From NCBI GenBank assembly GCA_963821525.1, contig CAWGED010000014.1, forward strand, positions 32,001 to 96,000: DNA of 64,000 nucleotides, read 5' to 3'. The translations under genes and the position numbers were made by a program. This document shows, piece by piece, positions 3,853 to 61,624 of this stretch. The notes below the pieces were generated by a model. The model saw only the letters and a list, made by a program, of their open reading frames with translations, was not told where the DNA came from and searched no databases. Positions within the stretch are counted from its first letter, which is position 1. Every line of letters begins with the position of its first letter. The DNA is from an uncultured Gemmatimonadales bacterium. Its GTDB lineage: Bacteria; Gemmatimonadota; Gemmatimonadetes; Gemmatimonadales; GWC2-71-9.

Positions 3853-3960
3853 GTGAGCGGTGAGCGGTGAGCGGTGAGCGGGCAGCACGGTCAGATCTGA
3901 GAAGCTCGCCGGGCGCGCGTGCAGTTCCCGCTTACCGCTCACCGCTCACCGCTTACCGCC
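3853..3960. repeat. Inverted heptamer arrays (GTGAGCG)4 ... (CCGCTYA)4-5
   Basis: Left arm 3853-3880, right arm 3928-3960; arms are reverse complements. Confidence 0.9.
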
Positions 3961-3968
3961 CGTAGCGC

Positions 3969-4838
3969 ATGGCCTCCAATCTCTTCCAGCGCATCTCCTT
4001 CGCCGTTATCGCCATTCCCGTGGCGCTCGGCGTCGTCTGGTTCGGCGGTTGGCCGCTCGTCGGATTGCTCGCGATTGTCGGCGCGCTCGGGTCGAGGGAG
4101 TTGTTCGATTTCGCCCAGCGGCAACAGATCGCTCCGCTTTCGGCCTGGGGAATCGCTTCGGCCGCGGTCCTGCCGTTTCTCGTCTACCTCTCGATCATCA
4201 CGCCGGGAGGCTGGCTCGCGTTCCTGCTGGGTAACTCCTGGTTCCTCGCCGCGTTGTGGCTGGTCGCCACGCTCACGATTGCGCTGGCTCGTCGAACTCC
4301 CAGCGATCGGCCACTCGCCGTTACGGCCATCACCGTTTTCGCCGTTGGATACACCGCCGGACTCCCCGCCACGCTGCTCCCCATTCGGCATTTCACCGAG
4401 CCGGGTCGTTCCTGGGCCGGCGCGTGGCTGGTGTTCACACCACTCGTCATCACCTGGGTTTGCGATACCGCGGCGATGTTCGCCGGAAGGCTCATCGGTG
4501 GCCCCAAGCTCTGGCCGGCCATCAGTCCCGGCAAGACCTGGTCGGGCAGTGTGGCCGGAGTCGTGGCCGCGCTGGCGACGGTGCCGCTGCTCAACAGCCT
4601 GGTCCTGGAACGCCAGGGTATAGCTCTCCCGATCACCCAGGGACTGATCTTCGGGCTGATCCTCGGAATTGTCGGGCAGATTGGCGATCTTGCGGAGTCT
4701 CTCTTCAAGCGGGAAGTGGGTCTCAAGGATTCCTCGGCGATCATTCCGGGTCACGGAGGCATCCTGGACCGCTTTGATTCGCTCTATTTTGTGCTGCCGG
4801 TCTCGGCGGCGTTCTATCGCCTGGTCGGGATGATCTGA
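3969..4838 (+). CDS. cdsA: Phosphatidate cytidylyltransferase
   Basis: ISPGKTW, GDLAESLFKR, KDS...IPGHGGILDRFDS. Confidence 0.96.
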   Translation: MASNLFQRISFAVIAIPVALGVVWFGGWPLVGLLAIVGALGSRELFDFAQRQQIAPLSAWGIASAAVLPFLVYLSIITPGGWLAFLLGNSWFLAALWLVATLTIALARRTPSDRPLAVTAITVFAVGYTAGLPATLLPIRHFTEPGRSWAGAWLVFTPLVITWVCDTAAMFAGRLIGGPKLWPAISPGKTWSGSVAGVVAALATVPLLNSLVLERQGIALPITQGLIFGLILGIVGQIGDLAESLFKREVGLKDSSAIIPGHGGILDRFDSLYFVLPVSAAFYRLVGMI

Positions 4839-5972
4839 TGCGCCACCAGTCCAGGAACGACAACCAGCCTGCGAAGACACGGGGAGTCGCCATCCTCGGG
4901 TCTACCGGCTCGATCGGAAAGAGTGCGCTGGCGGTGATCGGCAGACAGCGCGATCACTTCCGGGTCGTGGCGTTGACCGCGCGGAGCAACGAAGCGGCGT
5001 TGGGCCGCCAGGTCGCGCAGTGGCAACCGGCTTATTCCGCCCTGGTGAGCAAGACGGGTCCCGAGGCTTTGGTCGAGGCGGCGACTCATCCCGATGTGGA
5101 CATCGTGCTCAACGCCGTGGTCGGCTCGGCAGGACTCGACGCGACTCTCGCGGCGCTTCGCGCCGGGAAACGGGTGGCCCTGGCCAACAAGGAAACGCTG
5201 GTCATGGCGGGCGACCTGGTGCGGGCAGCCGCCTGCGCCGGCGGCGGTGAATTGGTTCCCGTGGATTCGGAGCACAGCGCCGTCCTGCAATGTCTTCAAG
5301 GTCGGGAGACCGGCCTCGCGCGAGTGATCCTGACGGCGTCGGGCGGCCCCTTTCGCGAGTGGGAGCCGGACCGGATCCGAGCGGCGACGGTGCAGGAAGC
5401 GCTCAACCACCCGACCTGGAGCATGGGGAACAAGGTCACGGTGGACAGCGCGACCCTGGCCAACAAGGCGCTCGAGCTGATCGAGGCCCACCATTTCTTC
5501 GAACTGGGCTACGATACTCTCGACGTCGTGGTCCATCCCCAGAGCATCGTGCACGCTCTGGTTGAGTACTGTGACGGTAGCGTCATTGCCCAAATCGCCT
5601 TTCCCTCGATGGAACTGCCGATTCTCTATGCCCTCACCTATCCCACACGGCTCCCGGATCAGGGTGTCCGCCGGTTCGATCCGGTGCAGGCCGGTGTCCT
5701 CACCTTCGAGCCGGTGAGGAGCGATGTCTTCCGCGCGTATTCGGCAGGGCTTTCGGCGGGACGCGCCGGCGGGACTGCTCCTGCGGTGTTCAACGCCGCC
5801 AACGAAACCGCGGTGGCTGCATTCCTCGACGGACGAGTGCCGTTCGGCCGCATCTCCGATACGATCGAGCGAGTTCTCGATGAACATGCAGCCGGCACCC
5901 GCCGGTGATCTTGATACCGTGCGCGCCGCGGACCAGTGGTCCCGGGTCCGCGCCAGTGAGGTGTTGAAGTGA
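4838..5972 (+). CDS. dxr: 1-deoxy-D-xylulose 5-phosphate reductoisomerase; indel near 5890
   Basis: ILGSTGSIG, LANKE, PVDSEHSA, HPTWSMGNKVTVDSATL; the last helix (DLDTVRAADQWSR) is in another frame. Confidence 0.93.
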
Positions 5973-7333
5973 TCGTTTTCGAGTATCTCTGGCCCCTGGT
6001 CGTCACCCTCGGCGTGCTGATCTTCGTGCACGAAGCGGGGCATTTCATCGCGGCGAAGTGGGCGGGGATCTACGTGCATCGTTTCTCACTGGGCCTCGGT
6101 TCACCGATTCCCTGGCTCACCCGGAAGATCGGAGAAACCGAGTATTCGATCTCCTGGCTCCCGCTCGGCGGCTACGTGAAGATGGCGACCGCGGAGGAAG
6201 GAGCCGACAGCTCGGCGCTCGAGGGTGGCGCGTCGGAGATCGCGCACATACCGCCCGACCGGATGTTCGAGGCCAAACCGGTCTGGAAGCGGATGGTGGT
6301 CATTCTGGCCGGCGTCACCATGAACGTGGTGTTCGCCTGGTTCGCGTTTGTGTTTCTGGCGGCGAAAAACGGGGAGCAGATCGATCCGGTCACCAGGATC
6401 GGCGCCGTTACCGCGGACAGCCTGCCCCCTGGCGCTGAGGCCCTCGCCGCAATGCATCCGGGAGACAGCATCGTCGCGATCGACGACCAGCCGGTGCATT
6501 CGTGGAACGAAGTCCAGGAGTTGATCGGCTCCAGCTCCGGCGACTCGGTGGTCGTTCACCTGGCCGACGGGCGAGCGCTGCCGATTCACATTCATCCCGC
6601 AGCACTCGTGGATCGGGTGCGGGTCCTGAACGCCATCGCGCCGGCCCACCAGCCACTGGTCGAGACGGTCGAGAGTGGCCGGCCCGGCCACAAGGGCGGC
6701 TTGCTCCCCGGCGACACGATCCTGGCGCTCAACGATTCGCCGGTCGAGTCGCGCGACGTAGTCATACCCACGATCCGCAACAGCATCGGAACCCCTTTGA
6801 AGTTCCGGGTCGGGCGCGCGGGCGGACCGGTCGATCTCACGATCACGCCGGAAGCGGTGACCGAGGCGGGCAAGCAGGTGGGCAAGATCGGAGTCGCCTT
6901 CCGCGAGGCGGTCAACTGGGAACGCCGGCCTTACACTTTGAGTCAAGCCTTCGGCGCCGGTGCCCGGGCGACTCTCGCGGCATCCACCCAGATCGTGCGC
7001 ACCGTGCAGGGACTGCTCTCTGCCCGGATCTCCAGCCGCGAGGTCGGTGGTCCGATTCTGATCGGCCAGCTCGCCGCGCAGAGTGCGAGGCTCGGGTTCG
7101 ACACCTTCCTCGCCTTCATGGCGCTGATCTCGGTCAACCTCGCCATCCTCAACCTGCTTCCCATCCCGGTGCTGGATGGCGGGCAGTTCCTCTTCCTGCT
7201 GGCGGAGGTGGTGTTGCGTCGCCCGCCGTCGCTCAAGCTGCGAGAGCGGCTGACGCTTGTCGGTCTGGTGCTCATCGTCTCACTGATGGTCCTGGCGTTC
7301 TCAAACGACATTCGCCGGCTGATCGGCATCTAG
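5969..7333 (+). CDS. rseP: RIP metalloprotease RseP (two PDZ domains)
   Basis: [25 protein letters not shown]. Confidence 0.96.
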
Positions 7334-7353
7334 TCGGGAAGGGTGACGCTGCT

Positions 7354-12595: not shown

Positions 12596-13527
12596 GCGCC
12601 AAACAGCTGCTTCGAATCGCGCTGGTGTTACTCGGTGCGATCGCGCTCTGGGGTGCTCTCGCCGTGGCAAAAAAGTCTCGGCAGGAACGTCCGTCGCGCA
12701 TGGTGCTTCCCGTGCTCGACAGCGCGTCCATCAACCGGATCGACATCCGCAAAGGCGCCGACTCGGTAGTGTTGATCAAGTCCGCGACCGGCTGGACGGT
12801 GAACGGCTGGACCGCGGCTCCCGCGGAAATGAGTGACTGGTTTACCGCTCTGGCCGATACGAATGCCCGGAGCGATCTCGCCGCCCAGAGCGAAGCCCTG
12901 CACCAACGACTCGGCGTGGACAGCGCCGGGCGGAAGGTGGTTCTGCAGGCCGGCGATAAGACGCTGGCAACGCTCGTGGTCGGGAACCGAGGGCCAGACT
13001 TCGAAGGGATCTACGTTCGCCGCGTGGAGTCGCCCGAGGTGTATCTCTCCCATGCCAGGTGGGCCGAGATGGCGGGCCGCGCGGCCGATGAATGGCGAGA
13101 CAAGCAGATCGCGAAGGTGGCAGCCGACAGCATTAAGGAAATCGCCGTCAGCCGGGCTTCCGGGAAGTTTACCGTGATCAAGGACGGCGGTTGGAAGTTC
13201 AAGTCGGGAGGCTCCGGGACGCCGGACAGTGCGGCCTCGGCCCGCTTCGCCGCGGCCTTTGGCGATCTCCACGCGATGGGTTTTGCCAATCCCGCACTCG
13301 CCGACACGCTGCGTCACGCCAAGCCCTGGCGTAGTGTTCGGGTGATCAATGCAGCCGGCGCTACGCTACTCTCAGTGGAACTCGATTCGACCGCGGCGGG
13401 ATTCTGGCTTCGGCCTGATAGCGGTGGCGTCGTGTATCGGGTTGATCAGTCGGTCACCGAGGCGATTGCACCGGCAGCTTCGGCACTCGCGGCGCCCAAG
13501 GCTCAGGGAGTAGGGAGTGGGGTGTAG
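12592..13527 (+). CDS. DUF4340-like membrane-anchored protein
   Basis: N-terminal TM, LVVG...YVRR...VYL and WRDK motifs; usual position after GldG. Confidence 0.65.
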   Translation: MSAKQLLRIALVLLGAIALWGALAVAKKSRQERPSRMVLPVLDSASINRIDIRKGADSVVLIKSATGWTVNGWTAAPAEMSDWFTALADTNARSDLAAQSEALHQRLGVDSAGRKVVLQAGDKTLATLVVGNRGPDFEGIYVRRVESPEVYLSHARWAEMAGRAADEWRDKQIAKVAADSIKEIAVSRASGKFTVIKDGGWKFKSGGSGTPDSAASARFAAAFGDLHAMGFANPALADTLRHAKPWRSVRVINAAGATLLSVELDSTAAGFWLRPDSGGVVYRVDQSVTEAIAPAASALAAPKAQGVGSGV

Positions 13528-13594
13528 GGAGTAGGGAGTGAGAATGGTCACACGATCCGTTCCTGACTCCCTACTCCCTACTCCCTACTCCCTA
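13505..13594. repeat. Inverted heptamer arrays (AGGGAGT)5 ... (ACTCCCT)4 between convergent genes
   Basis: Left arm 13505-13539, right arm 13566-13594; contains both stop codons. Confidence 0.92.
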
Positions 13595-17083: not shown

Positions 17084-18340
17084 GTGGAAACCGTCCAGCT
17101 CGACACCGGCCTCCACAGTACCCGGGCACCCAACGGCCTTACGGTCCTCACCGAGGTCCTGCCCGGGGTCCGTTCCGCCGCGGTGGGCGTTTGGGTCAGG
17201 TCCGCCAGCGCCCACGAGCCGCGCGCCAAGATGGGCGTATCCCACCTGCTCGAGCACATGGTGTTCAAGGGGACCGAGCGCCGGAACGCCAGGGAGCTCG
17301 CGCTCGAGCTCGAGGTCCGGGGCGGTTCCCTCGATGCCTATACCAGCCGCGACCACACCCACTACCAGGCTCACGTCCTCGATCAGAACCTTCCCGAGGC
17401 GGTCGATGTCCTGACCGACCTGGTGCACCGTCCCTTGCTCCGGGCCAGCGATCTCGACTTGGAGCGGAACGTGGTGCTGGAGGAGATCTCCACGGTGGAG
17501 GACACGCCGGATGATCTCGTCTTCGAGCTGTTCTCCGAACGGCTGTGGCCCGAACATCCCTACGGCTACTCGATCCTGGGCACGCGCGACACCGTCAGCG
17601 CCCTGGGCCCCGGCGATCTCCAGGCCCTCCATCGGGCCGGGTACTATCGCGGCAACTGCGTGGTTGCGGCGGCGGGCTGTCTCCAGCATGATCGTGTCCT
17701 CGAATTGCTCGAGCACGAGGGCTGGTTCGCCGGCGGCACTGCCGAGCCGCCTCTCCCGCCAGTGGCTTCAGTGCCGGCGGTCCGCGGTGCCGACGTCAGC
17801 ATCGCGCGGGATTCGAACCAGACTCATCTGGTCTTCGGCTCCGACACCTTCCCCTATCGGGACCGGCGGCGGTTCGCTCTCTCGATCGTGACCAACGTGT
17901 TCGGGGGCGGGATGTCGAGCCGGCTGTTCCAGTCGATCCGGGAAGAGCTGGGCCTGGCCTACGGGGTCTACGCCTATCAGCAGTTCTTCCAGACCGCGGG
18001 AATTGCGGGAGTGTACGTCGGTACCCAACCCGCGACGGCCGCGCAGGCGGAGGAAGCGATTCGCGCCCAGTATCGTCGCCTGGCGAATGAAGGACTCCCG
18101 GCCGAGGAGCTGGCAAGCGGCAAGCAGCAGCTCAAGGGGCAGTTGATGCTCTCGTTGGAGAGCCCGGCCAGCCGGATGAATCGTCTGGCAAGCATCACCC
18201 TGCACGGCGAGCCGTATCGCAACCTGGAAGCGCTTCTGGCGGAGATTGATGCAGTCACGGTTGACCAGGTCGCGGCGCTCACTGCTGAGTATTTCGATCC
18301 GGATCGACAGACAGTTGTAAGGCTGGGACCAGAGCAGTGA
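17084..18340 (+). CDS. M16 family zinc peptidase
   Basis: HLLEH inverted zinc motif, GGGMSSRLFQSIRE. Confidence 0.93.
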   Translation: METVQLDTGLHSTRAPNGLTVLTEVLPGVRSAAVGVWVRSASAHEPRAKMGVSHLLEHMVFKGTERRNARELALELEVRGGSLDAYTSRDHTHYQAHVLDQNLPEAVDVLTDLVHRPLLRASDLDLERNVVLEEISTVEDTPDDLVFELFSERLWPEHPYGYSILGTRDTVSALGPGDLQALHRAGYYRGNCVVAAAGCLQHDRVLELLEHEGWFAGGTAEPPLPPVASVPAVRGADVSIARDSNQTHLVFGSDTFPYRDRRRFALSIVTNVFGGGMSSRLFQSIREELGLAYGVYAYQQFFQTAGIAGVYVGTQPATAAQAEEAIRAQYRRLANEGLPAEELASGKQQLKGQLMLSLESPASRMNRLASITLHGEPYRNLEALLAEIDAVTVDQVAALTAEYFDPDRQTVVRLGPEQ

Positions 18341-18440
18341 ACGGTGAACGGCTAACGGTGAATGGGGTCGCGCCCGCTCACCGCTTACCGCTCACCGCTC
18401 ACTAACTACCGTTCCCCGTTCCCCGTTCACCGTTCACCGC
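18337..18440. repeat. Composite heptamer arrays (GTGAACG)4 ... (CCGCTYA)4 (CCGTTCM)4
   Basis: Blocks at 18337-18364, 18374-18402, 18409-18440. Confidence 0.9.
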
Positions 18441-26712: not shown

Positions 26713-26839
26713 GTTAGCAGCCGTCAGCCGTCAGCGATCAGCTAAAAGCCATGGGCCGAGAGGTTGGAATTTCAACCCGGGCACATGGCTTTTCCGCTGA
26801 ATGCTTATGGCTGACGGCTGACGGCTGACGGCTGCTGAC
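26713..26839. repeat. Inverted heptamer arrays (CGTCAGC)n ... (GCTGACG)n with inner stem aaaagccatg/catggctttt
   Basis: 23-nt outer arms complementary except one G-U; 10-bp inner stem. Confidence 0.9.
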
Positions 26840-28705: not shown

Positions 28706-28823
28706 CGATTGAAGATCGTTGATTGAAGATTGCTGATTTGCCCGGGCTCCAGGAGATCCGGCTGAATGCCCGGATCAATACCGCAATCCGCGCAATCGGC
28801 AATCTGCCATACCGACAATCGAC
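28706..28823. repeat. Inverted heptamer arrays (GATTGAA-like)n ... (CAATCNN)n
   Basis: gattgaagatcgttgattgaagattgctgattt ... caatccgcgcaatcggcaatctgccataccgacaatc. Confidence 0.75.
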
Positions 28824-28850: not shown

Positions 28851-30149
28851 ATGCAACCCAAGGCCCTGCCGGGGTTTCGGGACTTTTATCCAGCCGACTT
28901 CGCCTTCCGGGCCCACTTGTTCAATACCTGGCGCGCCGTTGCGGCGCGTTATGGTTTTGAGGAGTGGGATGGACCACCGCTCGAACCGCTGGAGTTGTAC
29001 ACGGCGAAGAGCGGCGACGAGATCGTGGGTCAGCTCTACAACTTTGTAGACAAGGGAGAGCGGGAGGTCGCACTCCGGCCGGAGATGACTCCGACTCTGG
29101 CGCGAGTCGTCGCGGCCCGGGCCAACGGGCTCCGCAAGCCGATCCGCTGGTATTCGATCCCTCAGCTCTTCCGCTACGAACGGCAGCAGCGCGGCCGGTT
29201 GCGTGAGCACTTCCAGCTCAACTGCGACCTGATCGGCGAGCCAGGGCCCCTGGGCGATGCGGAAATCATCGCGCTGGCCATTGATATCATGCGGGCCTTC
29301 GGACTGGGGCCGCAGGATGTGCGGGTGAGGGTCTCGGACCGCCGGGTGCTCAACGCGTTGTTGCAGGACCTCAAAGTCCCGGCTGCGCAGTTGCCGCTGG
29401 CGTATCAGGCGCTCGACAAGCTTGGACGCCGGGACTATGCCGATCTCCGCCGCCAGGTGATCGCGGATGGCATGGACGCCGGCGTCCTCGATCAGCTCGA
29501 ATCGCTCAAGAATGTGCGGACCTGGGAGCAATTCCTGCAGGCGAAGGGCTCGCATGCCGGCGCGATCGCGGCGGGGAACCAGCTGGGTCAGACCATCGCC
29601 GCGTTGCACAGCATGGGACTCGAGGAATTCCTCGACTTCGACCTGACGATCGTGCGGGGGATCGCGTACTACACCGGCACGGTCTTCGAGCTGTTTGATG
29701 CGAAGCGCGAGCTGCGGGCAATCTGTGGCGGTGGGCGCTACGACAACCTGCTCAGCTCCCTCGGCGGCGTAGACCTCCCGGCGGTGGGATTCGGGATGGG
29801 AGACGTGGTCCTGGGCGAGCTGCTCAAGGATCGGGGACTCGCGCCACCGTTGCCGGCGCCGATCGACGTGCTCGTCGCGGGGATCACCGACCAAGATCTC
29901 CCCCACGTCCTTCGCCTCGCTCACGAGTTGCGCGATGGCGGAATTCGCGTCGAGTTCGTGCTGAGCCTCCAGCCGATCGGGAAGCAGTTGAAGCTCGCCG
30001 ATGCCCGGGATGCGAGGTTCGCGGTCCTGATCGGCCCGGACGACCGGGCCAAAGGGGAAGTAGTCATCAAGGATCTTCGGACGAAGGAGCAGGTACCGAT
30101 CGCGGCGTCATCCGTGGTCAACGAACTCAAACGCCGTCTCAATGCATGA
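28851..30149 (+). CDS. hisS: Histidine--tRNA ligase
   Basis: LRPEMT, FRYERQQRGRLREHFQ, RGIAYYTG, GGGRYD. Confidence 0.97.
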   Translation: MQPKALPGFRDFYPADFAFRAHLFNTWRAVAARYGFEEWDGPPLEPLELYTAKSGDEIVGQLYNFVDKGEREVALRPEMTPTLARVVAARANGLRKPIRWYSIPQLFRYERQQRGRLREHFQLNCDLIGEPGPLGDAEIIALAIDIMRAFGLGPQDVRVRVSDRRVLNALLQDLKVPAAQLPLAYQALDKLGRRDYADLRRQVIADGMDAGVLDQLESLKNVRTWEQFLQAKGSHAGAIAAGNQLGQTIAALHSMGLEEFLDFDLTIVRGIAYYTGTVFELFDAKRELRAICGGGRYDNLLSSLGGVDLPAVGFGMGDVVLGELLKDRGLAPPLPAPIDVLVAGITDQDLPHVLRLAHELRDGGIRVEFVLSLQPIGKQLKLADARDARFAVLIGPDDRAKGEVVIKDLRTKEQVPIAASSVVNELKRRLNA

Positions 30150-30192
30150 GATTGAGGTCAATCTTCAATCTGAAATCTTCAATCTGAAATTC
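30149..30192. repeat. Heptamer array (CAATCTT/CAATCTG/AAATCTT) filling the hisS-proS gap
   Basis: caatcttcaatctgaaatcttcaatctgaaattc, preceded by a short gattga arm. Confidence 0.85.
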
Positions 30193-32977: not shown

Positions 32978-33082
32978 CGAGTACCGAGTACCGAGTACCG
33001 AGTACCGAGTACAAAACGGCGGAGAATCGCTGCCCCGATGTCAGAAGTCGGTACTCGATCTCGGCTACGCAGTACTCGGATA
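32978..33082. repeat. Heptamer array (CGAGTAC)5 with degenerate inverted arm (GGTACTC)
   Basis: Perfect array 32978-33012; tcggtactcg at 33048 and agtactcgg at 33071. Confidence 0.88.
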
Positions 33083-33105: not shown

Positions 33106-34663
33106 ATGACCCACCACGCCGGCATCCTCATCATCGACTTCGGGTCCCAGTACACCCAGCTCATCGCGCGGCAGGGTGCGGGAGGCGCAGGGTCTACTGC
33201 GAAATCCATCCGCCATCTCGCCCGGTGGAATGGATTCGCGAGTGGAAGCCCAAGGGGATCATTCTTTCGGGCGGGCCCAATTCGGTGTACGGCGACAACG
33301 TCCCCACCGCCGAGCCGGCCCTGCTCGAGCTGGGCACGCCGGTGCTCGGCCTCTGCTACGGTATGCAGCTGCTGGCCCATCTCTCCGGGGGGAAGGTTGA
33401 ACGGGCGGCCCGCCGGGAATACGGCCGGGCGATGATCGAGATCAAGGGCGGGAAGCTGTTCCATGGCTTCGGCGACGGGCGAGGAAACCCCGGTCTGGAT
33501 GAGCCACGGGGATCACGTGGATACGGCTCCTCCGGGTTACCGGGTTACCGCGTCGAGCGCCAATGCGCCGGTTGCGGGATTCGAGCATACCACGAAGCCG
33601 CTCTACGGCGTGCAGTTCCACCCGGAAGTGGCGCACACCCCGCGAGGCGGAGAGATCCTCCACAACTTCCTCTTCGAGGTCTGCGGCTGCGTTCCCGATT
33701 GGACGCCGGGTAACTTCATCGAAGGAGAGATCGCCCGGATCCGCGAGCTGGTGAAGCCCGATCAGCGGGTGATTTGCGGCCTGTCAGGCGGGGTGGATTC
33801 CTCGGTAGCCGCGGTGCTGGTCCATCGTGCGGTCGGCGACCGGCTCACCTGCATCTTCGTGGACCACGGCCTGCTTCGGCTGCATGAGCGTGACCAGGTC
33901 GAGCACACCTTCCGCCGCCACCTGGGGATCGATCTCCGGGTCGTGGACGCCGGCGCCCAGTTCCTCGCGGACCTCGACGGCATCACCGATCCCGAGCTCA
34001 AGCGGAAGAAGATCGGGCACCGCTTCATCGACGTCTTCGAAGCCGAAGCGAAGAAGGTCGGCTCCGGCGTCGCCTACCTGGTGCAGGGGACGCTCTATCC
34101 CGACGTCATCGAGTCCATGTCCCCGCTGGGTGGGCCGTCGGTCACGATCAAGACCCATCACAACGTGGGCGGGCTTCCCGAGAAGCTTCCCTTCAAGCTG
34201 ATCGAGCCGCTGCGGGAGTTGTTCAAGGACGAGGTCAGGCAGGTAGGGCGCGAGTTGGGATTGCCCGACGAGATGGTGGGCCGCCATCCGTTCCCCGGAC
34301 CGGGCCTCGCGATCCGGGTGGTCGGCGACATCACGCCGGCCAACCTCGACATCCTCCGCCGAGCCGACCACATCTACATCGAGGAGATTCGCGCGGCCGG
34401 ACTGTACGACGAAATCTGGCAGGCCTTCGCGGTGCTGCTCCCGATCCGCTCGGTAGGGGTCCAGGGCGACGAGCGGAGCTACGACCAGGTGGTCGCGCTG
34501 CGCGCCGTCACCAGCCGGGATGGCATGACGGCCGACTGGTACTGCCTTCCCGCCCGAAGTCCTGGCCCGCATCTCGAACCGAATCGCCAACGAAGTGGAA
34601 GGGGTGAACCGGGTGGTGTACGACGTGAGCTCGAAGCCGCCTGCCACGATCGAATGGGAATAA
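33106..34663 (+). CDS. guaA: GMP synthase (glutamine-hydrolysing); several indels
   Basis: [58 protein letters not shown]. Confidence 0.95.
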
Positions 34664-34680
34664 CGGGAAGCACCTAGGGA

Positions 34681-34786
34681 GATTTCAGATTGAAGATTTC
34701 AGATTGAGGATTGAAAACGGAGGTCGTCCTAGATCAGAAGCAGAGGCAGTTCAATCTGCAATCTGAAATCTTCAATCTTCAATCCC
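34681..34786. repeat. Inverted heptamer arrays (GATTTCA GATTGAA)n ... (CAATCTG/AAATCTT)n between convergent genes
   Basis: Arms at about 34681-34715 and 34751-34786. Confidence 0.9.
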
Positions 34787-39520: not shown

Positions 39521-39881
39521 GGGGGCGACTGGTTTCGACGGGTTTGAAGAAGGAATTGCTGCGTGCCCAGGTCCAGGTTCCTGGTTAAACCGCTTGGAAA
39601 CATTCAATTGCCAACTCTGAATTGGCGCTGGCTGCATAAGCTGAGCTAGACTCGCTTATCGCACCACCAGTGAGCAGAGCCCGCCCGGGGCGCTGACCGC
39701 TGGACGAAAATCCGGGCTGGCGTGCCGTGGTGCTCCACCACGGAGCGTGAGATCTCAGGAGATAGGTTGCGGGCAGGTCGGTGCTTCACCGGCCCGTGAC
39801 GACGGAAAGAAGAAGTGCCTACGCACGTAGATGTGGTTCTGGAAGCTGACTCGGACGAGGGTTCGATTCCCTCCGCCTCCA
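39521..39881 (+). ncRNA. ssrA: tmRNA; tag peptide ANSELALAA (39610-39639); CCA not encoded
   Basis: 5' GGGGGCGACTGGTTTCGAC, 3' GAGGGTTCGATTCCCTCCGCCTCCA, acceptor stem with G-U pair, tag ORF ending LAA-stop. Confidence 0.97.
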
Positions 39882-39888
39882 CTGTCCA

Positions 39889-39940
39889 AGCAAAAGCGGG
39901 AAAACGGGAACCGGGGATCCCTGTTCCCGCTTTTTGTTTG
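39889..39940 (+). terminator. Intrinsic terminator after ssrA, built from GGGAAC-type heptamers
   Basis: aaaagcgggaa...ttcccgctttttgttt. Confidence 0.75.
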
Positions 39941-45300: not shown

Positions 45301-45410
45301 CTCTGTCCACGGTAATCACTCTGGTGCTGTTGCCGGCGGGGCTGCTTGGGGTCGGGGCCCTTGGGCGGAAAAGCGGGAACGGGGAACAGGGAACGGGGAA
45401 CGGGGGGTAG
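42306..45410 (+). CDS. RND efflux permease (AcrB/CusA family); several indels
   Basis: NLMSLGGLAVAVGLIIDDAVVVVENI, GFLPQMDEG, VKNGIIL, RLRPILMTT. Confidence 0.9.
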
Positions 45411-45470
45411 GAGGCAGTGAAGCTGTACAACCACCTCATCCCGAGTTCCCGTTCCCTTTTCCCGCTTTTC
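45368..45470. repeat. Inverted heptamer arrays (GGGAACR)n ... (GTTCCC)n
   Basis: aaaagcgggaacggggaacagggaacggggaacgg ... gttcccgttcccttttcccgctttt. Confidence 0.85.
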
Positions 45471-45520: not shown

Positions 45521-45976
45521 ATGAAAGCGTCTGCAACCTATACCGTGAAAAAGTGGGAGGAGAAGCCGTACGACGATATCTCCTCCGAGATGAAAATGAC
45601 GCGTGCCTCTGTCGAGTACGCGCTCGACGGCGAGATCAAGGGCAAGGCCGCGGTCGAATACCTGATGTTCTACAGCCACTTCGACGCCCAGGACCAGCAC
45701 AAGGCCGCGGCCGAGTACGTGGGACTGGTGCGCTTCAACGGTGCAGTGGGCGGGAAGTCAGGAAGTTTCGTGATGCAGGATACCGGGAGCTTCGAACAGG
45801 GAACCGCGAGCTCGGCCTTGCAGGTCGTCGAGCACTCCGGAACCGGAGAGCTGAAGGGGATCAAGGGTAAGGGAAGCTACCGGGCGAACAAGGAAGGGTT
45901 TCGGTTTGAGGTGGAGTACATCTGTGAATTGAGATGTCAGATTGAAGATTGCAGATTGAGAAGAGGTACTGTTTAG
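45521..45976 (+). CDS. DUF3224-like protein
   Basis: WEE, YVGLVRFNG..GGKSGSFV, SGTGELKGIKG. Confidence 0.75.
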   Translation: MKASATYTVKKWEEKPYDDISSEMKMTRASVEYALDGEIKGKAAVEYLMFYSHFDAQDQHKAAAEYVGLVRFNGAVGGKSGSFVMQDTGSFEQGTASSALQVVEHSGTGELKGIKGKGSYRANKEGFRFEVEYICELRCQIEDCRLRRGTV

Positions 45977-46030
45977 TCGCACCTCCTCACCAATCTAGCA
46001 ATCTTCAATCCTCAATCCGCAATCCCCATC
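45929..46030. repeat. Inverted heptamer arrays (GATTGAA/GATTGCA) ... (CAATCNN)
   Basis: gatgtcagattgaagattgcagattgag ... caatctagcaatcttcaatcctcaatccgcaatcc. Confidence 0.85.
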
Positions 46031-46031: not shown

Positions 46032-46611
46032 TCAGCTCCCCGCCGTCACCGGAATCTTCACCCTCGTCGTCTCCCACTCCAACACCAGGAAGCCCGGTTC
46101 CGATGCGATGGTGAACATCTCGACCGGGGTCTTCAGCGCCTCGGGCTTCACCTTGCCGCGGCCGAGTTCCTGGGCCTTGACCGCATCGGTGTAGGTGTGC
46201 TCTTCGCCCCACTGGGTGATCGACTTGTTCACGATCACTTCCCACTCACCGGCATTGGGCACGGTGTACAACGAGTAGGAGCCCGCGGGAACCTTGATGC
46301 CCGCCACGACCAGCGGTCCGCTGGTGTGAATCATGGTCGGCTCGTTGGCACCGGTGCGCCAGAGCTTCCCATACGGCACATCGTCTCCGCCCAGCATGTG
46401 GCGGCCGCGCAGCGAGGGCCGGCCATAGCAGACCTTTACGTCCGAGGAGCCCACATTGAAGCTGAGCGAATCGAGCGGACTCTTCCGAGTGGCCAGAGGC
46501 AGCTTTTCGGTGTTCATCGTGATGCAGGCCAGCGGTGCGGGAGCAGGCCGGGCGGGTGAAACGGTCAGGGCGTGACAGGGCGGTCAGGGCGGTCAACGCT
46601 AGAAACGGCAT
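46032..46611 (-). CDS. DUF2911-like secreted protein; 1-nt insertion near 46574
   Basis: YGRPSLRGR, VPYGKLWRTGANE, GSYSLYTVP; signal peptide restored by removing one base. Confidence 0.8.
46562..46596 (-). repeat. Nonamer tandem (CTGACCGCC)~4 within a signal-peptide coding region
   Basis: ttgaccgcc ctgaccgcc ctgtc(a)cgcc ctgaccgt on the - strand. Confidence 0.75.
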
Positions 46612-46663
46612 AGAATCCTCTGGTTCGTGTACAGGGTGATCGCTGCTTCAGTCTTCTGCTATC

Positions 46664-46694
46664 CTAGGTACTCGGTACCCGGTACTCGGTACTT
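46664..46694. repeat. Single-arm heptamer array (GGTACTC)4 at the purK stop
   Basis: ctaggtactcggtacccggtactcggtactt. Confidence 0.85.
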
Positions 46695-49088: not shown

Positions 49089-50450
49089 CCGGCTCCGGCT
49101 TCGGCTGGCTGGCTGGTTTGCGCTGGCCATCCTCCTCGGCCTGGCCGTGCTCGACCTCGGCCTCTTCACCGCCCTTCGCCGGGTTGCCGACCGCCAGCTG
49201 AGCGTCGAGGTGTTGACCGCCGCTCGCGGCTTGCGACTGGCGGTCAGGCGGGAAGCGGGAGATCAACAGCACTTCACCCTCGACGAAGCGGCGAAGGAAG
49301 CGCTCTCGGAGTGGCCCCCGGGGCACGAGGGCTTGGCATCTTTTCGCCCGACGGTAACATGATCGGGAAGCGCGGTCCCAAGGGACTGCTCGCCGCCGTA
49401 CCTCCACTAGACTCGCTGCCTCCTCCGGAACGGATTCTCGAGCTGCCTCTCAAAGTCGAGGGCAGTGCACGTATGGCGGCGGCGCGGGAAACCGGTGACT
49501 CCGGCTTCGTGGTGGTGGCCGTGGCTTCGACAGCCGAGTTGAAGTCACAGCTGGAGACATTAGCGTGGCTTCTCCTTCTCAGTGTTCCGTTAGTGCTGGT
49601 GATTTCGCTGCCGGCGGGATATTTCCTTGCTCAGCGGGCGCTGGCGCCGTTTCAGTCGCTCTCGGACGAGCTCGAGAGTATTCAACCTGGTGTACTCGAG
49701 CGCCGGCTGCCGATCGCCGAGCCGCCCGATGAGCTGGATCACCTGGCACAGCAGGTCAACTCCCTCCTCGACCGGCTCGCCGGCTCACAGCGGCAGACCC
49801 GGAAATTTCTCGCCCAGGCCGCCCACCAGCTTCGCACTCCGCTGACCCTGATCCGGGGCGAGAGCGACCTGGCGATCGATCGTCCCCGGAGTCCGGAGGC
49901 GCTCCGCGCGGCACTGGATCGCGTGAATCTGGCCTCTCAGCAGATGAGCCGGCGGGTGGATGAACTCTTCCTCCTCGCGCGGGCCGAGGCCGGTGAAGCC
50001 CTGGCGCGCCCGGAGGCGGTTGAGCTGGACGCCGTCGCGATCGAAGCCGCCGATCTCATGCGGGGACGGGCCCATGCGCTGGGACGTAAGATCTCGCTGG
50101 GGCCGATGGCGAGCGTGGAGGTCCTGGGAGACGGTTCTCTGCTACGGGAAGCGGCAGTGGAGCTGGTGGAAAATGCCTGCCGGCACGGCGCCGCGAGCGA
50201 GCCGGTGGACATTGCCGTGACCGAACACGACAGCACCGCCTGTCTGCGGGTTACGAGTGCCGGTCCGCCGATCTCGGAAAACCTCCTCCATCGCGGATCC
50301 GAGGACGACTCGAGCCGGGGGATTGGTCTCTCAGTGGTTCGCTGGATTGCGACTGCCCACGGCGGAAAGCTGGACTATGTCCAGGAGGCCGGGCGCAATG
50401 TGATGGTGATGTGCCTGCCGCGTAGTCAGCCGCTAGCTGTTAGCCGTTAG
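49078..50450 (+). CDS. Sensor histidine kinase (HAMP, HisKA, HATPase); indel near 49335
   Basis: Two TMs, DEL HAMP motif, AAHQLRTPLT, ENA, GIGLS, AHGG. Confidence 0.88.
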
Positions 50451-50569
50451 CTGTTAGCTGTTAGCCAAGGCCGTAAGCCATTAGCCCTAAGCCAGAAGCG
50501 CGAGAGCTTACGGCTTAGGGCTCCGTACTCGGTACTAACTAGGTACTCGGTACTAGGTACTAGGTACTT
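50426..50569. repeat. Triple composite heptamer array (TAGCYGT)n, (TAAGCC..)/(GGCTTA..), (GGTACTM)n
   Basis: Three abutting blocks with 7-nt period between convergent genes. Confidence 0.88.
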
Positions 50570-51191: not shown

Positions 51192-51276
51192 GGTTGTCCT
51201 CGGTGGTCGGGGAACGGGAGGCAGCGCCGATAATCAGTGGGCCACGAGGGGATTTGGCAAGAGCGGGGAGGGGGAT

Positions 51277-51356
51277 GGTAATTGGTAATTGGTAATCGAT
51301 AATTGGTAATTGGTCATTGCCAATTACAAATTGCAAATTATCAATTACCAATCACC
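51277..51356. repeat. Inverted heptamer arrays (GGTAATT)7 ... (CAATTAC)5, essentially no spacer
   Basis: ggtaattggtaattggtaatcgataattggtaattggtcattg ccaattacaaattgcaaattatcaattaccaatc. Confidence 0.9.
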
Positions 51357-57342: not shown

Positions 57343-57432
57343 GTCGGGGTCGGTAGGGGTCAGGGGTCAGGGGTCAGGGTTATAGATCTGGGTCGCTGTT
57401 CCCTGACACCTGGCACCTGATACCTGACACCT
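57343..57432. repeat. Inverted heptamer arrays (GGGGTCA)n ... (CCTGACA)4
   Basis: ggggtcaggggtcaggggtcaggg ... ccctgacacctggcacctgatacctgacacc. Confidence 0.85.
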
Positions 57433-57433
57433 T

Positions 57434-57913: not shown

Positions 57914-57936
57914 GATGGATCAGGAATCAGATGGGC

Positions 57937-58260: not shown

Positions 58261-58369
58261 GAGGGCTCCCGGGGTACGAGTCAGATCTGCACGAAACAGT
58301 GCACTTCGATGGCGCCTGCTCGGCCTCGGGTCGTCCCGGTAGGTTAGAGGCGGAGAGCTGCGAGCGCGG

Positions 58370-58870
58370 TCAGCCGGGGGTAAGGCCGTGGCGAGCCAGC
58401 AGGGTGTCCACCGAGGCCAGGTCGAACTCGACTCCGTAGCCACGCGCCAGACCGGCAAGAGCGACGAGGTCCAGGCTGTTATGGTGTGTTGCGAGCGTGG
58501 CCAGCTCCTCGAAGAAGTGTTCGAATCCGCCCGGAGCTATCACTTCAAGAAACCGGACCGGTTCGCTGCCCGAATTCCAGAAGGCGTGGAAGACTCCCTT
58601 GGGCTTGTGAATGCAGCCTCCGGGACCGGCCAGCTCGATCTTGGTTCCCTGCTGCACGGTGAGGGTGCCTTCCAGCACGTAGGAAATCTCGTCCTCCCGC
58701 GAATGGCGATGCAGCGGAGCGCCGAGCAATCCGGGGCCCAGCGTGTGTTCCACGAGCGCGACGGACCCGCGACTCGCTTCGCTGAGGACTTTGAATGTCG
58801 TGCTGAAGGTACCCAGCGCAACGCGGCGCCCGGCACCCGGTGCCGTATAGGTGAGGAGCGACGGTCTCAT
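58370..58870 (-). CDS. Cupin domain protein
   Basis: PLHRHSREDE.SYVLEG, PKGVFHAFWN. Confidence 0.88.
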   Translation of the reverse strand: MRPSLLTYTAPGAGRRVALGTFSTTFKVLSEASRGSVALVEHTLGPGLLGAPLHRHSREDEISYVLEGTLTVQQGTKIELAGPGGCIHKPKGVFHAFWNSGSEPVRFLEVIAPGGFEHFFEELATLATHHNSLDLVALAGLARGYGVEFDLASVDTLLARHGLTPG

Positions 58871-58922
58871 GAGCCCTCCTGCGTAATCAGCCTTCTCTAC
58901 TAATGTGCCGTGCCAGGCGGGT

Positions 58923-59264
58923 CTACGCCACAGGCCCGCCCGGGGCCTGGTTTTTCCGGCCTTCTCGAATCTCGTAATGGGCCGAGCGCTGGTCGAACCG
59001 GAGCAGAAGCTCCCGGGCCTTGGGCGGTACGACCGCCACTTCGTAGTCCGCGCCGGCAAACCCTTGTACTGCGTCGATCGAATCGAACCACATCAGGGTC
59101 ACGAACTCCACCTCCTCGTCGCTCGGACGCCTGAGCAGCTCGATGCCGTGAAATCCCCGGAGGTTTCGTTCCACGATTCCCTGGAAAATCTCGCTGCGAA
59201 GCAATGCTTCGTAGGCGTCGGCGTTCGCCGGCGTGGTCCAGCCATGCCAGATGCGGCAGATCAT
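58923..59264 (-). CDS. ABM-like (dimeric alpha-beta barrel) protein
   Basis: MICRIWHGWT, EFVTLMWFDS, FAGADYE. Confidence 0.8.
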   Translation of the reverse strand: MICRIWHGWTTPANADAYEALLRSEIFQGIVERNLRGFHGIELLRRPSDEEVEFVTLMWFDSIDAVQGFAGADYEVAVVPPKARELLLRFDQRSAHYEIREGRKNQAPGGPVA

Positions 59265-59848
59265 TTCGCCCTCCCCACTTCCGCCGCGCGTTTGATTCGA
59301 CGCAGCATCACCTTACGGATCAGGCCGCTCGCGCCCCCGATGATGAACCAGTAGCGCTTGAAGGCTCTCCGACTCGCCTCGTCGTCACAGCGGACCCGTG
59401 TTTCGGTGGTGAGGCGAGTCGAGGCCCCCGCCGGGTCCAGCCGGAAACTCCAGACTCCCCGGGCCAGCTTAGGTGGTAGAGCCTCGAGAAAGGTGGCCGC
59501 CGAACTGGGCACCAGCTTGGCGGAAGGAGTCCAGAACCGTCCCGTCACGCCGAGCACCAGTTCCTCACCGGGAGACTCGGCCAGCAGCACGAATCCGTCG
59601 CCACCGAGAATGCCCCTTAGCCCTTCCACCTCTCGGTCCCGCCGGTGTTGCATCCGGCGCCTGGTGGCGCGCGGATGCAGGATCAGACCTGGCAGTGCCC
59701 GCAGGGTGAGCAGGGCGCGGATCAGCGGGGCGCGACGGAAGTCGGCTTCCCACAATGCACGATAGACCGCCTCGGGTGAAGCCCGAACGGTGATATCGTA
59801 ACTCGCGCTCACGTCGTAAACCGGCATCCAATGGTCGAGCAGGCTCAC
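59261..59848 (-). CDS. Hypothetical protein (DUF2867-like)
   Basis: ELVLG..GRFW, LTTETRV, FKRYW..I. Confidence 0.7.
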   Translation of the reverse strand: MSLLDHWMPVYDVSASYDITVRASPEAVYRALWEADFRRAPLIRALLTLRALPGLILHPRATRRRMQHRRDREVEGLRGILGGDGFVLLAESPGEELVLGVTGRFWTPSAKLVPSSAATFLEALPPKLARGVWSFRLDPAGASTRLTTETRVRCDDEASRRAFKRYWFIIGGASGLIRKVMLRRIKRAAEVGRAK

Positions 59849-59872
59849 TGGATAGACCGGTATGGTGTACGG

Positions 59873-60124
59873 CTACCCCTTCTTGACGAGCCGGACCAGA
59901 TACAGAAGGAGCAACGCCCCGACCAGGGCGGTAATCAGCGCGCCGATAATTCCTCCCGCGGCGATGCCGAGGAGGCTGAACACCCACCCGCCGATGAAGG
60001 CGCCGAGAACACCGACAACCAGGTCCCCAACCAATCCAAACCCAGAACCTTTCATAATCTTTCCGGCCAGGAAACCGGCAAGGCACCCAATTACGAGGAA
60101 GAGGATCAGGCTCTGCGTGGTCAT
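59873..60124 (-). CDS. GlsB/YeaQ/YmgE (transglycosylase-associated) membrane protein
   Basis: IG.LAGFLAGKIM, GVLGAFIGG, ALVGALLLL; aggagg RBS. Confidence 0.9.
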   Translation of the reverse strand: MTTQSLILFLVIGCLAGFLAGKIMKGSGFGLVGDLVVGVLGAFIGGWVFSLLGIAAGGIIGALITALVGALLLLYLVRLVKKG

Positions 60125-60370
60125 CGGAACACCTCCTGTGTGTGCACTGCGAGACCGTTTCGGCCGACGCACTGCCACGTGCACCTGACGGCAGCGCGGG
60201 CCGGAACGGATTGAAGGTGGGGCTCGCGTGGAGCGATGCTATCCCGCGTCACGAGCGGCCCTACCTGACAGAGACTGGCCACGCCGGGCGCGTCTCTCAT
60301 TACGACATTGACCTTCAGCCCATCGGTGTGCAGCCCGTTGGCGAGGTTGACCGGCTCGATCTGCCCCGGT

Positions 60371-60604
60371 TCAGGCGTGGTCCGCAACCGCGGTAACTCC
60401 CTCATGCCGGGCGCAGCTGGCACAACAGTAGAAAATGCCCTTGGCCTCGATCCCGTGGCCGATGATCCTGCATCCGCAGTGGTGGCAGGTCGGCGCCAGC
60501 ATGTGGATGGCGCACTCGAAACTGTCGAATGTATGGGTGCTGCCGGCCGCGACCACCTGGAACGAAAGGTGGTAGTCGTTACCGCAAACGTCACACTTGG
60601 CCAT
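60371..60604 (-). CDS. Small Cys/His-rich metallothionein-like protein
   Basis: CDVC, FDSFECAIH, CHHC, YCCASC; ggagg RBS. Confidence 0.8.
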   Translation of the reverse strand: MAKCDVCGNDYHLSFQVVAAGSTHTFDSFECAIHMLAPTCHHCGCRIIGHGIEAKGIFYCCASCARHEGVTAVADHA

Positions 60605-60687
60605 AACCCCTCCGAAATCGATGCGGCGCCCCGTGCGCCGTGCTCGGAAAGTGGCCAGTTATGCGGTGCGACGCCAGCCGCCGCCGG

Positions 60688-61023
60688 TCAGCGCCGCCGG
60701 CGCCGTTTCCTTGGTGGGGGCTCCGGCACGAACTGCAGGTTGACCGCGAGGAGCTGTCCCTCGAACCACGCCAGCAAGCGGCCAGTGAACTTTTCGGCCA
60801 GGTAGAACAGGTCGCTCTGGGTCTTGGGGCGAATGTGAGCGATCAAGACGCCGTTCGCCCGGCTCACCTCGATGTAGCCACCTTTGGGACGCTGGGCATG
60901 GCGCAAGCGGGTCTTCTTCTTGTTGGCCCAGGACCAGGTTCTGGCCTCTCGAATTCTGGCGCGCAGCAGCTGGTAGGCGTCGAGATGGCCGGCGGGAATT
61001 GCCTGGAGAACCACCATGGGCAT
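60688..61023 (-). CDS. Small basic hypothetical protein
   Basis: ggag RBS; plausible globular sequence with basic tail. Confidence 0.6.
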   Translation of the reverse strand: MPMVVLQAIPAGHLDAYQLLRARIREARTWSWANKKKTRLRHAQRPKGGYIEVSRANGVLIAHIRPKTQSDLFYLAEKFTGRLLAWFEGQLLAVNLQFVPEPPPRKRRRRR

Positions 61024-61052
61024 GCTCCGCGTTGGGTGGAGAAGGGGCCAGG

Positions 61053-61095
61053 GAATTTCAGATTGAAGATTTCAGATTGAAGATTGCTGATTTCA
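61053..61095. repeat. Single-arm heptamer array (GATTTCA GATTGAA)n
   Basis: gaatttcagattgaagatttcagattgaagattgctgatttca. Confidence 0.88.
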
Positions 61096-61170
61096 AAGTG
61101 TTGAACATGAGCATGGAGCCGGATTTCCCGACTAGATTCAGGGGTCTTCACAACCGACTGGAGCTGAGTC

Positions 61171-61533
61171 ATGCCGTACTTGACCCACAAACTTACTCGC
61201 GCAGCCCTGCTGGCCGTTACTCTGGCTGCCTGCGCGTCCGGGAGTTCTCAAAAGTCCCCGAGCCCGGATCAGGGGTCGGAGCCGCACCTGGAAGTGATCA
61301 ATCGCTCATCCGCTGACGTGGATATCTATCTCGTCCGTACCGGTCAGCGGATCCGGCTTGGACTTGCTCCCAACAATCAGACCACCAAGTTCTCGCTGAC
61401 CCCTGCGCTGACGATCGGGGCCGGCACGGTGCGCTTCGAGGCGGTGCCTATCGTGGGCGGCAACACCATCAGCACCGACCCCACGACCCTCCAGCCCAAC
61501 GCCACGGTCACCCTCGACGTTCCTCCTCCATAG
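61171..61533 (+). CDS. Putative lipoprotein
   Basis: LAAC lipobox, VINRS...DIY...RLG. Confidence 0.75.
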   Translation: MPYLTHKLTRAALLAVTLAACASGSSQKSPSPDQGSEPHLEVINRSSADVDIYLVRTGQRIRLGLAPNNQTTKFSLTPALTIGAGTVRFEAVPIVGGNTISTDPTTLQPNATVTLDVPPP

Positions 61534-61534
61534 G

Positions 61535-61624
61535 GTTAGCCGTTAGCAATTAGCCGGTAGCTGTTAGCTGTTACGGTCAGGAGGGTGGCATCACCCGACG
61601 GCTAACAGCTAACGGCCTACGGCC
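61535..61624. repeat. Inverted heptamer arrays (GTTAGCY)n ... (RGCTAAC)n
   Basis: gttagccgttagcaattagccggtagctgttagctgtta ... ggctaacagctaacggcctacggc. Confidence 0.88.

Follow-up and report, generated by a model that had tools for sequence, protein, structure and literature searches.

What makes, spreads or reads a family of repeat arrays that keeps one period while its units change from place to place? This question is raised by a 64,000-nucleotide stretch of an uncultured Gemmatimonadales bacterium (C14:32001-96000, referred to here as the window), part of a 4.33-Mb, 19-contig assembly (G000) that is 81% complete. A preliminary description of the window listed 17 arrays of 7-nucleotide units. 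We found that period-7 arrays are real, far above chance and tied across phyla to a specific gene family, TIGR02436, which encodes a four-helix-bundle protein.

Four-helix-bundle genes enclosed by inverted arms

A profile search of the genome returned 13 TIGR02436 matches, 12 of the 13 above the TIGR02436 cut-off. Inverted arms enclose all 13 genes, with a period of 7 at nine, 8 at three and 9 at one, and nearly every gene has its own repeat unit. TIGR02436 had been named earlier as a candidate, and the position of 13 of 13 genes between such arms bears this out. The earlier statement that no candidate enzyme gene lies in the window also holds, the profile search giving zero TIGR02436 matches there. 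Three of the genes (L012, L013 and L010, on contigs C7, C5 and C19) are partial profile matches and look frameshifted.

Within the genus, which comprised the 13 genes above and 47 from four congeners (47 of 48 matches were fetched, and two matches are pieces of one gene), both arms are present at 52 of 60 genes and at least one arm at 60 of 60; the genes missing an arm lie mostly at contig ends. Among other genera of the order, taking the best match per genome, both arms were found at 21 of 25 genes. In other genomes, mostly of other phyla, both arms are present at 29 of 38 loci compared with 4 of 267 control positions, and the phyla among these loci include Bacteroidota, Cyanobacteriota, Patescibacteria, Nitrospirota, Acidobacteriota and Chloroflexota. 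The 5' arm of gene loci is G-rich in 68 of 90 cases, tied in 14 and C-rich in 8. A quick version of the protein tree contains one clade of 12 proteins (support 95), of which 11 are flanked by arms made of 8- or 9-mers. Among the 16 listed long-range arm pairs, 9 enclose the gene as their cargo, plus one duplicated copy. Since the same inward 7-base design encloses four-helix genes, the intergenic hairpins are likely gene-less copies of these cassettes. Two further loci (L039 and L043, in G047 and G043; family f2) hold a four-helix gene in long inverted repeats with no detectable 7-10-mer period, possibly a non-periodic variant.

Other genes were considered as partners of the 7-mers and rejected. 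GxxExxY, also suggested in the preliminary description, fails as the 7-mer partner: its genes carry no period-7 arms and have an inverted 8-9-mer family of their own. The GxxExxY genes L014-L016 (C5, C4 and C8), with gene-less copies nearby, constitute a parallel gene-in-palindrome system; one GxxExxY gene is split in two matches. The four Y1/RAYT-type transposase genes (L176-L179; C12, C1 and C19) each have their own short palindromes, and none of the four lies within heptamer arms, one having a closed heptamer hairpin upstream. Small GIY-YIG genes (L181-L183; C5, C8 and C12) are enclosed by a separate family of palindromes that resemble repetitive extragenic palindromic (REP) sequences. Gene-less copies of this REP-like family often sit in heptamer hairpin loops (43 of 80 pattern-defined loci adjoin an array, the pattern including false hits), and a half palindrome lies in a hairpin loop at window position 45432. 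A phage vehicle was rejected on a weak negative, a single-protein scan of viral contigs that returned no relative.

Inventory and anatomy of the arrays

Of the 17 coordinates on the list, 16 have an array of period 7 or 14 according to Tandem Repeats Finder (TRF), and the exception (39889) is a weak two-unit remnant. With a lag-based detector, the window yielded 25 arrays of period 7, and no more than one turned up at any of periods 5, 6 and 8-11. After block shuffling of the window (40 replicates), period-7 arrays averaged 0.125 and never exceeded 2. Scored with the previously described units, 10 of the 17 sites are clear inverted pairs (3853, 13505, 18337, 26713, 32978, 34681, 45929, 51277, 57343 and 61535), three are weak or degenerate pairs (28706, 39889 and 45368), three are single arms (30149, 46664 and 61053) and one is a four-arm composite (50426). 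The earlier view of most loci as hairpins is therefore correct, though it does not hold for every locus, and the array list, nearly all of which was confirmed, had missed a 9-mer arm at 46562-46595. Folding of nine of the 17 sites, picked for looking paired, gave z values of -3.2 to -12.0, with 0 of 200 shuffles as good at each site. The 32978 array is spanned by a contig from an independent soil run, and another run has one unit fewer. An assembly artefact was ruled out because independent soil contigs carry this array and the four congeners have arrays in most of the same gaps. The window arrays sit between protein genes or after the transfer-messenger RNA (tmRNA) gene, and Rfam detected tmRNA alone, with no rRNA in the window. 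The sites are as follows, with no strand assigned and the evidence in brackets at the end of each line.

3853..3959: uppS-cdsA hairpin; G-arm 3853-3881 (GTGAGCG x4), 46-nt loop, C-arm 3928-3959 (TRF, unit scoring, folding)
13505..13594: convergent gene-end hairpin; G-arm 13505-13539 (AGGGAGT x5), C-arm 13566-13594 (TRF, unit scoring, folding)
18337..18439: composite hairpin before alanine dehydrogenase; G-arm 18337-18365, C-arms 18374-18402 and 18409-18439 (TRF, unit scoring)
26713..26834: hairpin after accD; G-arm 26718-26742 (CGTCAGC), palindromic loop, C-arm 26796-26834 (TRF, unit scoring, folding)
28707..28821: folC-hisS gap; G-arm 28707-28738 (GATTGAA type), degenerate C-arm approximately 28776-28821 (TRF, unit scoring)
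30149..30190: hisS-proS gap; single C-arm 30158-30190 (GATTGAA/GATTTCA family), one residual G unit (TRF, unit scoring)
32978..33079: lysA-guaA gap; G-arm 32978-33012 (CGAGTAC x5), degenerate C-arm 33048-33079 (TRF, unit scoring, metagenome contig)
34680..34784: hairpin between guaA and a convergent phosphotransferase system (PTS) IIA gene; G-arm 34680-34715, C-arm 34750-34784, alternating GATTGAA/GATTTCA (TRF, unit scoring, folding)
39889..39940: weak two-unit remnant hairpin directly after tmRNA, GGGAACG type (below TRF threshold; arm scores 10 and 8.5)
45375..45463: resistance-nodulation-division (RND) permease gene-end hairpin; G-arm 45375-45405 (GGGAACG), weak C-arm from 45448 (TRF, unit scoring, folding)
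45939..46028: hairpin between convergent genes; G-arm 45939-45959, C-arm 45999-46028, GATTGAA type (TRF, unit scoring, folding)
46562..46693: mixed locus downstream of purK; 9-mer G-arm 46562-46595 facing 7-mer C-arm 46664-46693 (CGAGTAC family) (TRF, unit scoring)
50425..50568: composite of four arms; G-arms A (50425-50465) and B (50470-50503), C-arms B (50505-50536) and C (50538-50568) (TRF, unit scoring)
51276..51356: near-loopless GGTAATT hairpin (TRF, folding)
57355..57432: hairpin; G-arm 57355-57379 (GGGGTCA), C-arm 57401-57432 (TRF, unit scoring, folding)
61054..61092: single G-arm in a divergent gap, GATTGAA/GATTTCA family (TRF, unit scoring)
61535..61627: convergent gene-end hairpin; G-arm 61535-61573 (GCTGTTA type), C-arm 61597-61627 (TRF, unit scoring, folding)

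The tmRNA gene itself occupies 39521-39882 (tag ANSELALAA), and in congener G001 approximately 6.5 kb of other DNA lies behind its 3' end, as expected for an integration site. A short period-8 run within the guaA coding region (33530-33553) is probably due to chance.

Genome-wide, the excess over shuffled controls that the preliminary description had named as a check amounts to 992 period-7 arrays, two shuffles having given 36 and 45. Period-8 arrays number 221 (42 and 38 in two shuffles), periods 6 and 9 are moderately raised, and periods 5, 10 and 11 remain at background. The cyanobacterial short tandemly repeated repetitive sequences (STRR), or heptameric long simple sequence repeats, are intergenic tandem heptamers in excess over other periods, and the arrays described here are alike in this respect. 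Of the stronger period-7 arrays, 744 of 847 lie outside called genes. By our own crude gene caller, convergent gaps hold arrays in 120 of 455 cases, tandem gaps in 328 of 2926 and divergent gaps in 55 of 459.

An inverted partner within 200 nt accompanies 447 of 820 arrays with non-palindromic units compared with 1 of 820 random places, so inverted pairing also stands above its control. The left arm is G-rich in 371 of 431 untied pairs, that is, arms face inward with the G-rich arm first. Arms begin close to stop codons (median distance 0-2 nt) and stop a median of 22 nt short of a start codon, and stems of approximately 30 bp enclose loops of approximately 35 nt (268 hairpins). We parsed 552 loci into 221 simple pairs, 199 single arms, 57 pairs of unlike families, 57 more complex loci, including nested ones, and 18 unparsed loci. 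Outward order within one family was found in 0 of 552 loci, and any outward junction in 5 of 335 multi-arm loci; because the family list was oriented from paired loci, this tests the consistency of polarity across loci and not the label. We counted 74 distinct left-arm units, and near self-complementary arrays are just 27 of 847. Among the 51 distinct units that occur two or more times, there is a loose common frame (information 3.52 versus 2.91 +/- 0.12 in 20 shuffles) with a nearly fixed A at one position (93% of the units). The claim of one fixed period with unrelated units is to be amended by this weak shared frame and by a period-8/9 class.

Loops are mostly unique, 172 of 233 having no second hit in the genome, and the second hits are nested arms, the REP-like insert or duplicated contig stretches. 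Among the matches listed, loops match cassette loci essentially through nested arms alone, and none was seen that would make loops remnants of cassette interiors. Since the loops, which have no traced source, are largely unique, the hairpins are not copies of one MITE (a miniature transposable element with inverted repeats), whose copies, unlike these hairpins, have a common internal sequence.

The order of unit variants bears on how arrays arise. In the largest family, GATTGAA/GATTTCA, alternation of the two variants was observed 54 and 43 times versus 26 and 23 expected, and identical neighbouring units are depleted (26 versus 41 expected). This order is the reverse of slippage and matches the arm order of cassette L008. 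An alternating 19-mer of this family occurs 40 times in this genome, 4 times in G001 and in 0 of 149 other genomes of the phylum. Local slippage alone does not account for the arrays, as was argued earlier.

The arrays could nonetheless be host regulatory elements (terminators, RNase III stems, translation control or G-quadruplexes) that arise by slippage and are kept by transcript selection, as proposed for Xanthomonas, Beggiatoa and Geobacter, and we regard this as quite improbable. Arms abut stop codons and are enriched in convergent gaps, occupancy is conserved, and stems of approximately 30 bp would suit RNase III, which cuts the element of Coxiella (PMC4990558). However, mismatches read on the sense strand are G-U in 220 cases versus A-C in 216, and the sense strand folds better in just 85 of 177 hairpins; selection on sense-strand RNA pairing was rejected on this absence of G-U bias. 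Most units lack G-tracts: GGG is absent from the most abundant (GATTGAA, GCCGTCA, CGAGTAC and GTGAGAA), and four G-tracts of at least 3 are formed solely by the AGGGAGT, GGGAACG, GGGAGAC and GGGGTCA types. The anti-slippage variant order also speaks against this explanation, both arms change together to unrelated units, and the tie to one gene family is left unexplained by it. The RNA runs are contigs with approximately 10% of the words and have no bearing on processing. A secondary effect of the hairpins on transcripts is possible.

Inheritance and exchange at gene junctions

At the window's gaps in congeners (81-96% nucleotide identity), arrays are present in most gaps, and both arms have often switched to another unit; the comparison of orthologous gaps recommended at the outset therefore yields both presence and unit switching. 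The uppS-cdsA gap has GTGAGCG here and a GCCGTCA-type hairpin in all four congeners, the unit at 13505 differs in G002 and G003, the folC-hisS gap carries an 8-mer family in G001, G002 and G004, and the 45929 site has three different units among four genomes. GACTGAG hairpins follow tmRNA (39889) in G003 and G004, and a GCTGTTA hairpin occupies the 51277 site in G004. At 34681 the unit is kept and the loop changed in G003 and G004, and the lysA-guaA gap has no array in G011. A metagenome scan of the uppS-cdsA gap returned four loci, none gene-filled and none array-free: three GCCGTCA hairpins and one lone GTGAGCG arm. This lone arm (L174) has three units and no loop or second arm, and may be a deletion product or an intermediate of the 3853 hairpin.

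Gap-by-gap comparison of orthologous sites, over approximately 470 kb in each of G001, G003 and G004, gave 809 cases: 635 array-free gaps, 129 that share a unit, 25 with arrays and no shared unit and 20 that are one-sided. Array occupancy is inherited, both genomes being occupied in 154 of 174 array-bearing gaps. Complete replacement of the unit was found in 8, 7 and 10 gaps per congener (25 in total), and the identity of genes beside replaced gaps is close to background.

Where a site holds a gene, genomes that differ in unit also differ in protein (38-77% identity), between flanks that are approximately 80-97% identical. Because unit and protein change together while the flanks stay alike, the gene and its arms are exchanged as a block at fixed junctions. 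Across 46 same-site pairs, which are not independent, the two covary (rho -0.66): proteins are at least 71% identical in 14 of 18 pairs with matching units, and at most 69% identical in 26 of 28 pairs with different units. At one site, G000 and G003 have flanks 96-97% identical, proteins 51% identical and different units, whereas G001, a more distant congener, has the unit of G000 and 86% of its protein, against host relatedness. Among the gaps listed, one contains a gene in G001 and G002 where G000 has an empty hairpin built from another unit, and a second contains a gene in G002 where G000 has a decayed arm. At two gene sites either orientation occurs, and at one of them the protein is 99% identical. 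Within G000, near-duplicate stretches on separate contigs (C1/C12, C12/C13, C4/C9 and C5/C11) may be strain haplotypes, and the copies of an ABC-transporter junction on C5 and C11 hold different cassettes, with proteins 38% identical.

Such changes might also come about if host recombination with imported DNA swapped, inverted and nested recombination-prone arms, the four-helix gene being a passenger or a regulator whose protein may bind repeat RNA and move nothing. We consider this unlikely, though it has several points in its favor: no enzyme was identified, occupied gaps are inherited with just 20 of 174 one-sided, inversion between inverted arms needs no dedicated factor, another REP-like family sits in the loops too, and array load is poorly tied to gene count. 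Yet replacement ends at the gap with no donor-type divergence in the flanks, and the swapped units are unrelated and offer no homology. Furthermore, the gene is the cargo in 9 of the 16 listed long-range arm pairs and its packaging is constant across phyla, unlike that of a passenger.

The four-helix protein as a predicted reader of repeats

The PF05635 profile matches 10 of 10 aligned proteins, and a structure model (predicted local distance difference test, pLDDT, 92) has the fold of the crystallized family members. It superposes on Xcc0516 (2GSC) with Z 20.6 and a root-mean-square deviation (rmsd) of 0.8 over 112 aligned residues at 45% identity, on BT_0352 with Z 16.4, and on Avd of diversity-generating retroelements (4DWL, 8UB7) with Z 14.9 and an rmsd of 1.6-1.8 at 11-12% identity; the bAvd profile matched 1 of 10 proteins, below cut-off. 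Among 88 arm-flanked homologs, seven polar residues (Q36, R39, S43, N47, E50, S70 and E73) are 92-99% conserved. Asn and Gln commonly read adenine. The four-helix family is not known to have a catalytic motif. The protein is probably a homopentamer, given that the crystal structures 2GSC and 2RLD have five chains each and given PMC4990558. All five Avd protomers grip one RNA stem-loop, flipped-out bases of which enter crevices between subunits (bioRxiv 2023.10.23.563531). By this model, which also draws on the median of 4.9 units per arm, the ring would read one unit per subunit, and the fixed A would be the gripped base.

We lean, by a modest degree, toward reading the arrays as gene-less members of one exchangeable cassette family, in which the predicted pentamer reads its cognate arms and directs new arms into existing hairpins. 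Each paralog would recognize its own unit, and for this reason the period would be fixed by the ring while the unit drifts with the protein. Because G-U pairs are not favored on the sense strand, recognition may take place on DNA or on a strand-symmetric intermediate. New arms would be copied from a cassette template into the center of an old hairpin at a gene junction; the old arms would then decay, giving nested and mixed loci, and insertion right behind stop codons would spare genes. Cutting and joining might be performed by a host enzyme or by an unrecognized activity of the invariant Q/R/S/N/E cluster.

Several observations weigh against this cassette reading. No enzyme that would cut or join strands was identified; the genes for Y1 transposases and GIY-YIG proteins lie in other palindromes, and a reverse transcriptase was rejected as partner because the 81%-complete assembly has no RVT_1 match. 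Array load, whose correlation with gene families had been suggested as a check, is positively but weakly related to gene count (rho 0.36, p 0.015; 45 relatives in small, unequal samples), and the relation rests on one genus. Five genomes with 12-13 genes, sampled over the window's orthologous region, have 84 arrays in 292 kb; the rest were sampled around proS, and relatives are not independent. Ten gene-free genomes have 2 arrays in 158 kb and eight genomes with 6-10 genes have 3 in 124 kb, from which it follows that the gene is not sufficient for arrays. Several abundant units (ACCGAGT, 68 arrays; ACGGGAG, 46; AGGGAGT, 43; AACGGGG, 41) have no cassette in the assembly, their cassettes being found in congeners only, and of 22 families just 16 have units that are more abundant in cassette-owning genomes. 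When different sites are compared, the unit is poorly predicted by protein similarity (rho -0.11; outside the order, p 0.076), and a protein and arms that merely travel together would give the same covariation without binding. Simple internal deletion of cassettes is not supported, since loops are mostly unique and, among the matches listed, meet cassette loci essentially through nested arms alone. Orthologous gap comparisons, which lacked a near-identical empty allele, showed no evident target-site duplication or excision intermediate, and new sites are rare relative to inherited ones (20 of 174 one-sided). The median arm length of 4.9 units (847 arrays) is biased because the detector needs approximately 3 units. 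In sum, of the dedicated trans-acting mechanism put forward in the preliminary description, a dispersing, trans-acting process is indicated and TIGR02436 is linked to the arrays, the four-helix protein being a candidate for making or moving them.

The strict inward, G-rich polarity, kept even in mixed-family loci (57 of 552), would also be expected of a telomerase-like synthesis, in which a reverse transcriptase with an Avd-like pentamer extends 3' ends at a junction break with G-rich units and rejoining yields head-to-head arrays. Unique loops fit this scheme, as do Avd, itself a reverse-transcriptase cofactor, and arms in which one family passes into the next in register (14 of 38 junctions versus 8 expected, suggestive only). 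It is nevertheless very improbable: besides the absence of an RVT_1 match from the 81%-complete assembly, both arms usually have the same unit and symmetrical nested orders exist, and no template RNA was identified, Rfam giving tmRNA only in the window.

Known systems and the meaning of the gene-repeat tie

The cassette reading can be compared with several known systems. In Coxiella burnetii, the 23S rRNA intervening sequence has an S23p open reading frame (ORF) within terminal inverted repeats and tandem heptamers before its start codon, and a role in mobility was hypothesized earlier for this ORF (PMC4990558). The likeness is a PF05635 family protein inside inverted repeats with heptamers. 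Unlike rRNA intervening sequences, the arrays here lie outside rRNA genes and the cassettes between protein genes, and where the heptamers of Coxiella are described as a local feature (PMC4990558), this genome has 13 paralogs with their own units and hundreds of gene-less hairpins. Xanthomonas GGGAATC and Nostoc GGGGAYT form intergenic heptamer arrays, mostly of four units, with the G-rich strand after stop codons, and Xanthomonas has 70-75 convergent inverted pairs per genome (PMC4692102). A 4-unit GGGAATC array overlaps the start of XCC0516, the crystallized pentamer; the array is listed in one supplement row of PMC4692102 and goes without mention in the main text. That source describes one family per genome, read as G-quadruplexes, and in the parts available reports no mobile-element association, whereas there are more than 20 unit families here, most without G-tracts. 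In Geobacter metallireducens, the paired 'global regulator binding sites' lie on opposite strands, are separated by varying distances and consist of four or five hepta- or octanucleotides in tandem (PMC2700814); unlike here, they were read as IHF/HU binding sites, with no four-helix link in main-text passages or in 12 of 19 supplement files. Beggiatoaceae TAACTGA arrays are intergenic, have 2-6 units beside start codons and are patchy across phyla, with their mechanism given as not known; they differ in being nearly all single arms of one unit read as a translational regulator, and helix-bundle proteins go unmentioned in the portions of PMC4679880 consulted.

The closest functional parallel is REPIN-RAYT, in which many non-autonomous hairpins accompany few trans-acting genes flanked by their own repeat type, with insertion into or beside copies (PMC3116915). 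Both systems have inverted extragenic hairpin doublets in many copies (here 447 of 820 paired and 744 of 847 outside genes). However, the arms here are tandem heptamers and not short palindromes with a shared unit, the flanked gene encodes an all-helical Avd-fold protein and not an HUH tyrosine transposase, and the cassettes themselves are exchanged. The element thus works like REPIN-RAYT yet stands outside it, having no HUH transposase and no shared palindrome. The Avd pentamer, which is alike in fold and binds its stem-loop by flipped-out bases (bioRxiv 2023.10.23.563531), serves an adjacent reverse transcriptase, in contrast to the protein here. More tentatively, and with some doubt, we suggest a pan-bacterial class of mobile Avd-fold pentamer cassettes that has no known transposase, recombinase or reverse transcriptase, has five units per arm and one unit for each paralog, and rewrites gene junctions through insertion in hairpins already present. 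It might be the common origin of the cyanobacterial, Xanthomonas, Geobacter and Beggiatoa heptamers and of ORF-bearing rRNA intervening sequences.

Heptamer repeats are already in print, being over-represented in bacterial genomes with no accepted origin (PMC4692102, PMC4679880). The general link to a gene was not found in print, a literature search with little coverage of subscription journals having returned no paper that ties TIGR02436/PF05635 to dispersed heptamer arrays. Two crystal structures are available for the S23p/IVP family, which has no assigned function. The gene-repeat tie gives both puzzles a direct test, since it offers a named small protein, a paralog-specific predicted ligand and a predicted match between ring and repeat, and in each genome of the genus approximately 13 protein-unit pairs occur naturally, alongside hundreds of empty sites. 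Were the protein only to bind, it would still be a natural family of repeat readers with variable specificity. If it drives exchange, this would be a mode of DNA mobility without a known catalytic fold and, if true, would explain a long-puzzling class of bacterial repeats.

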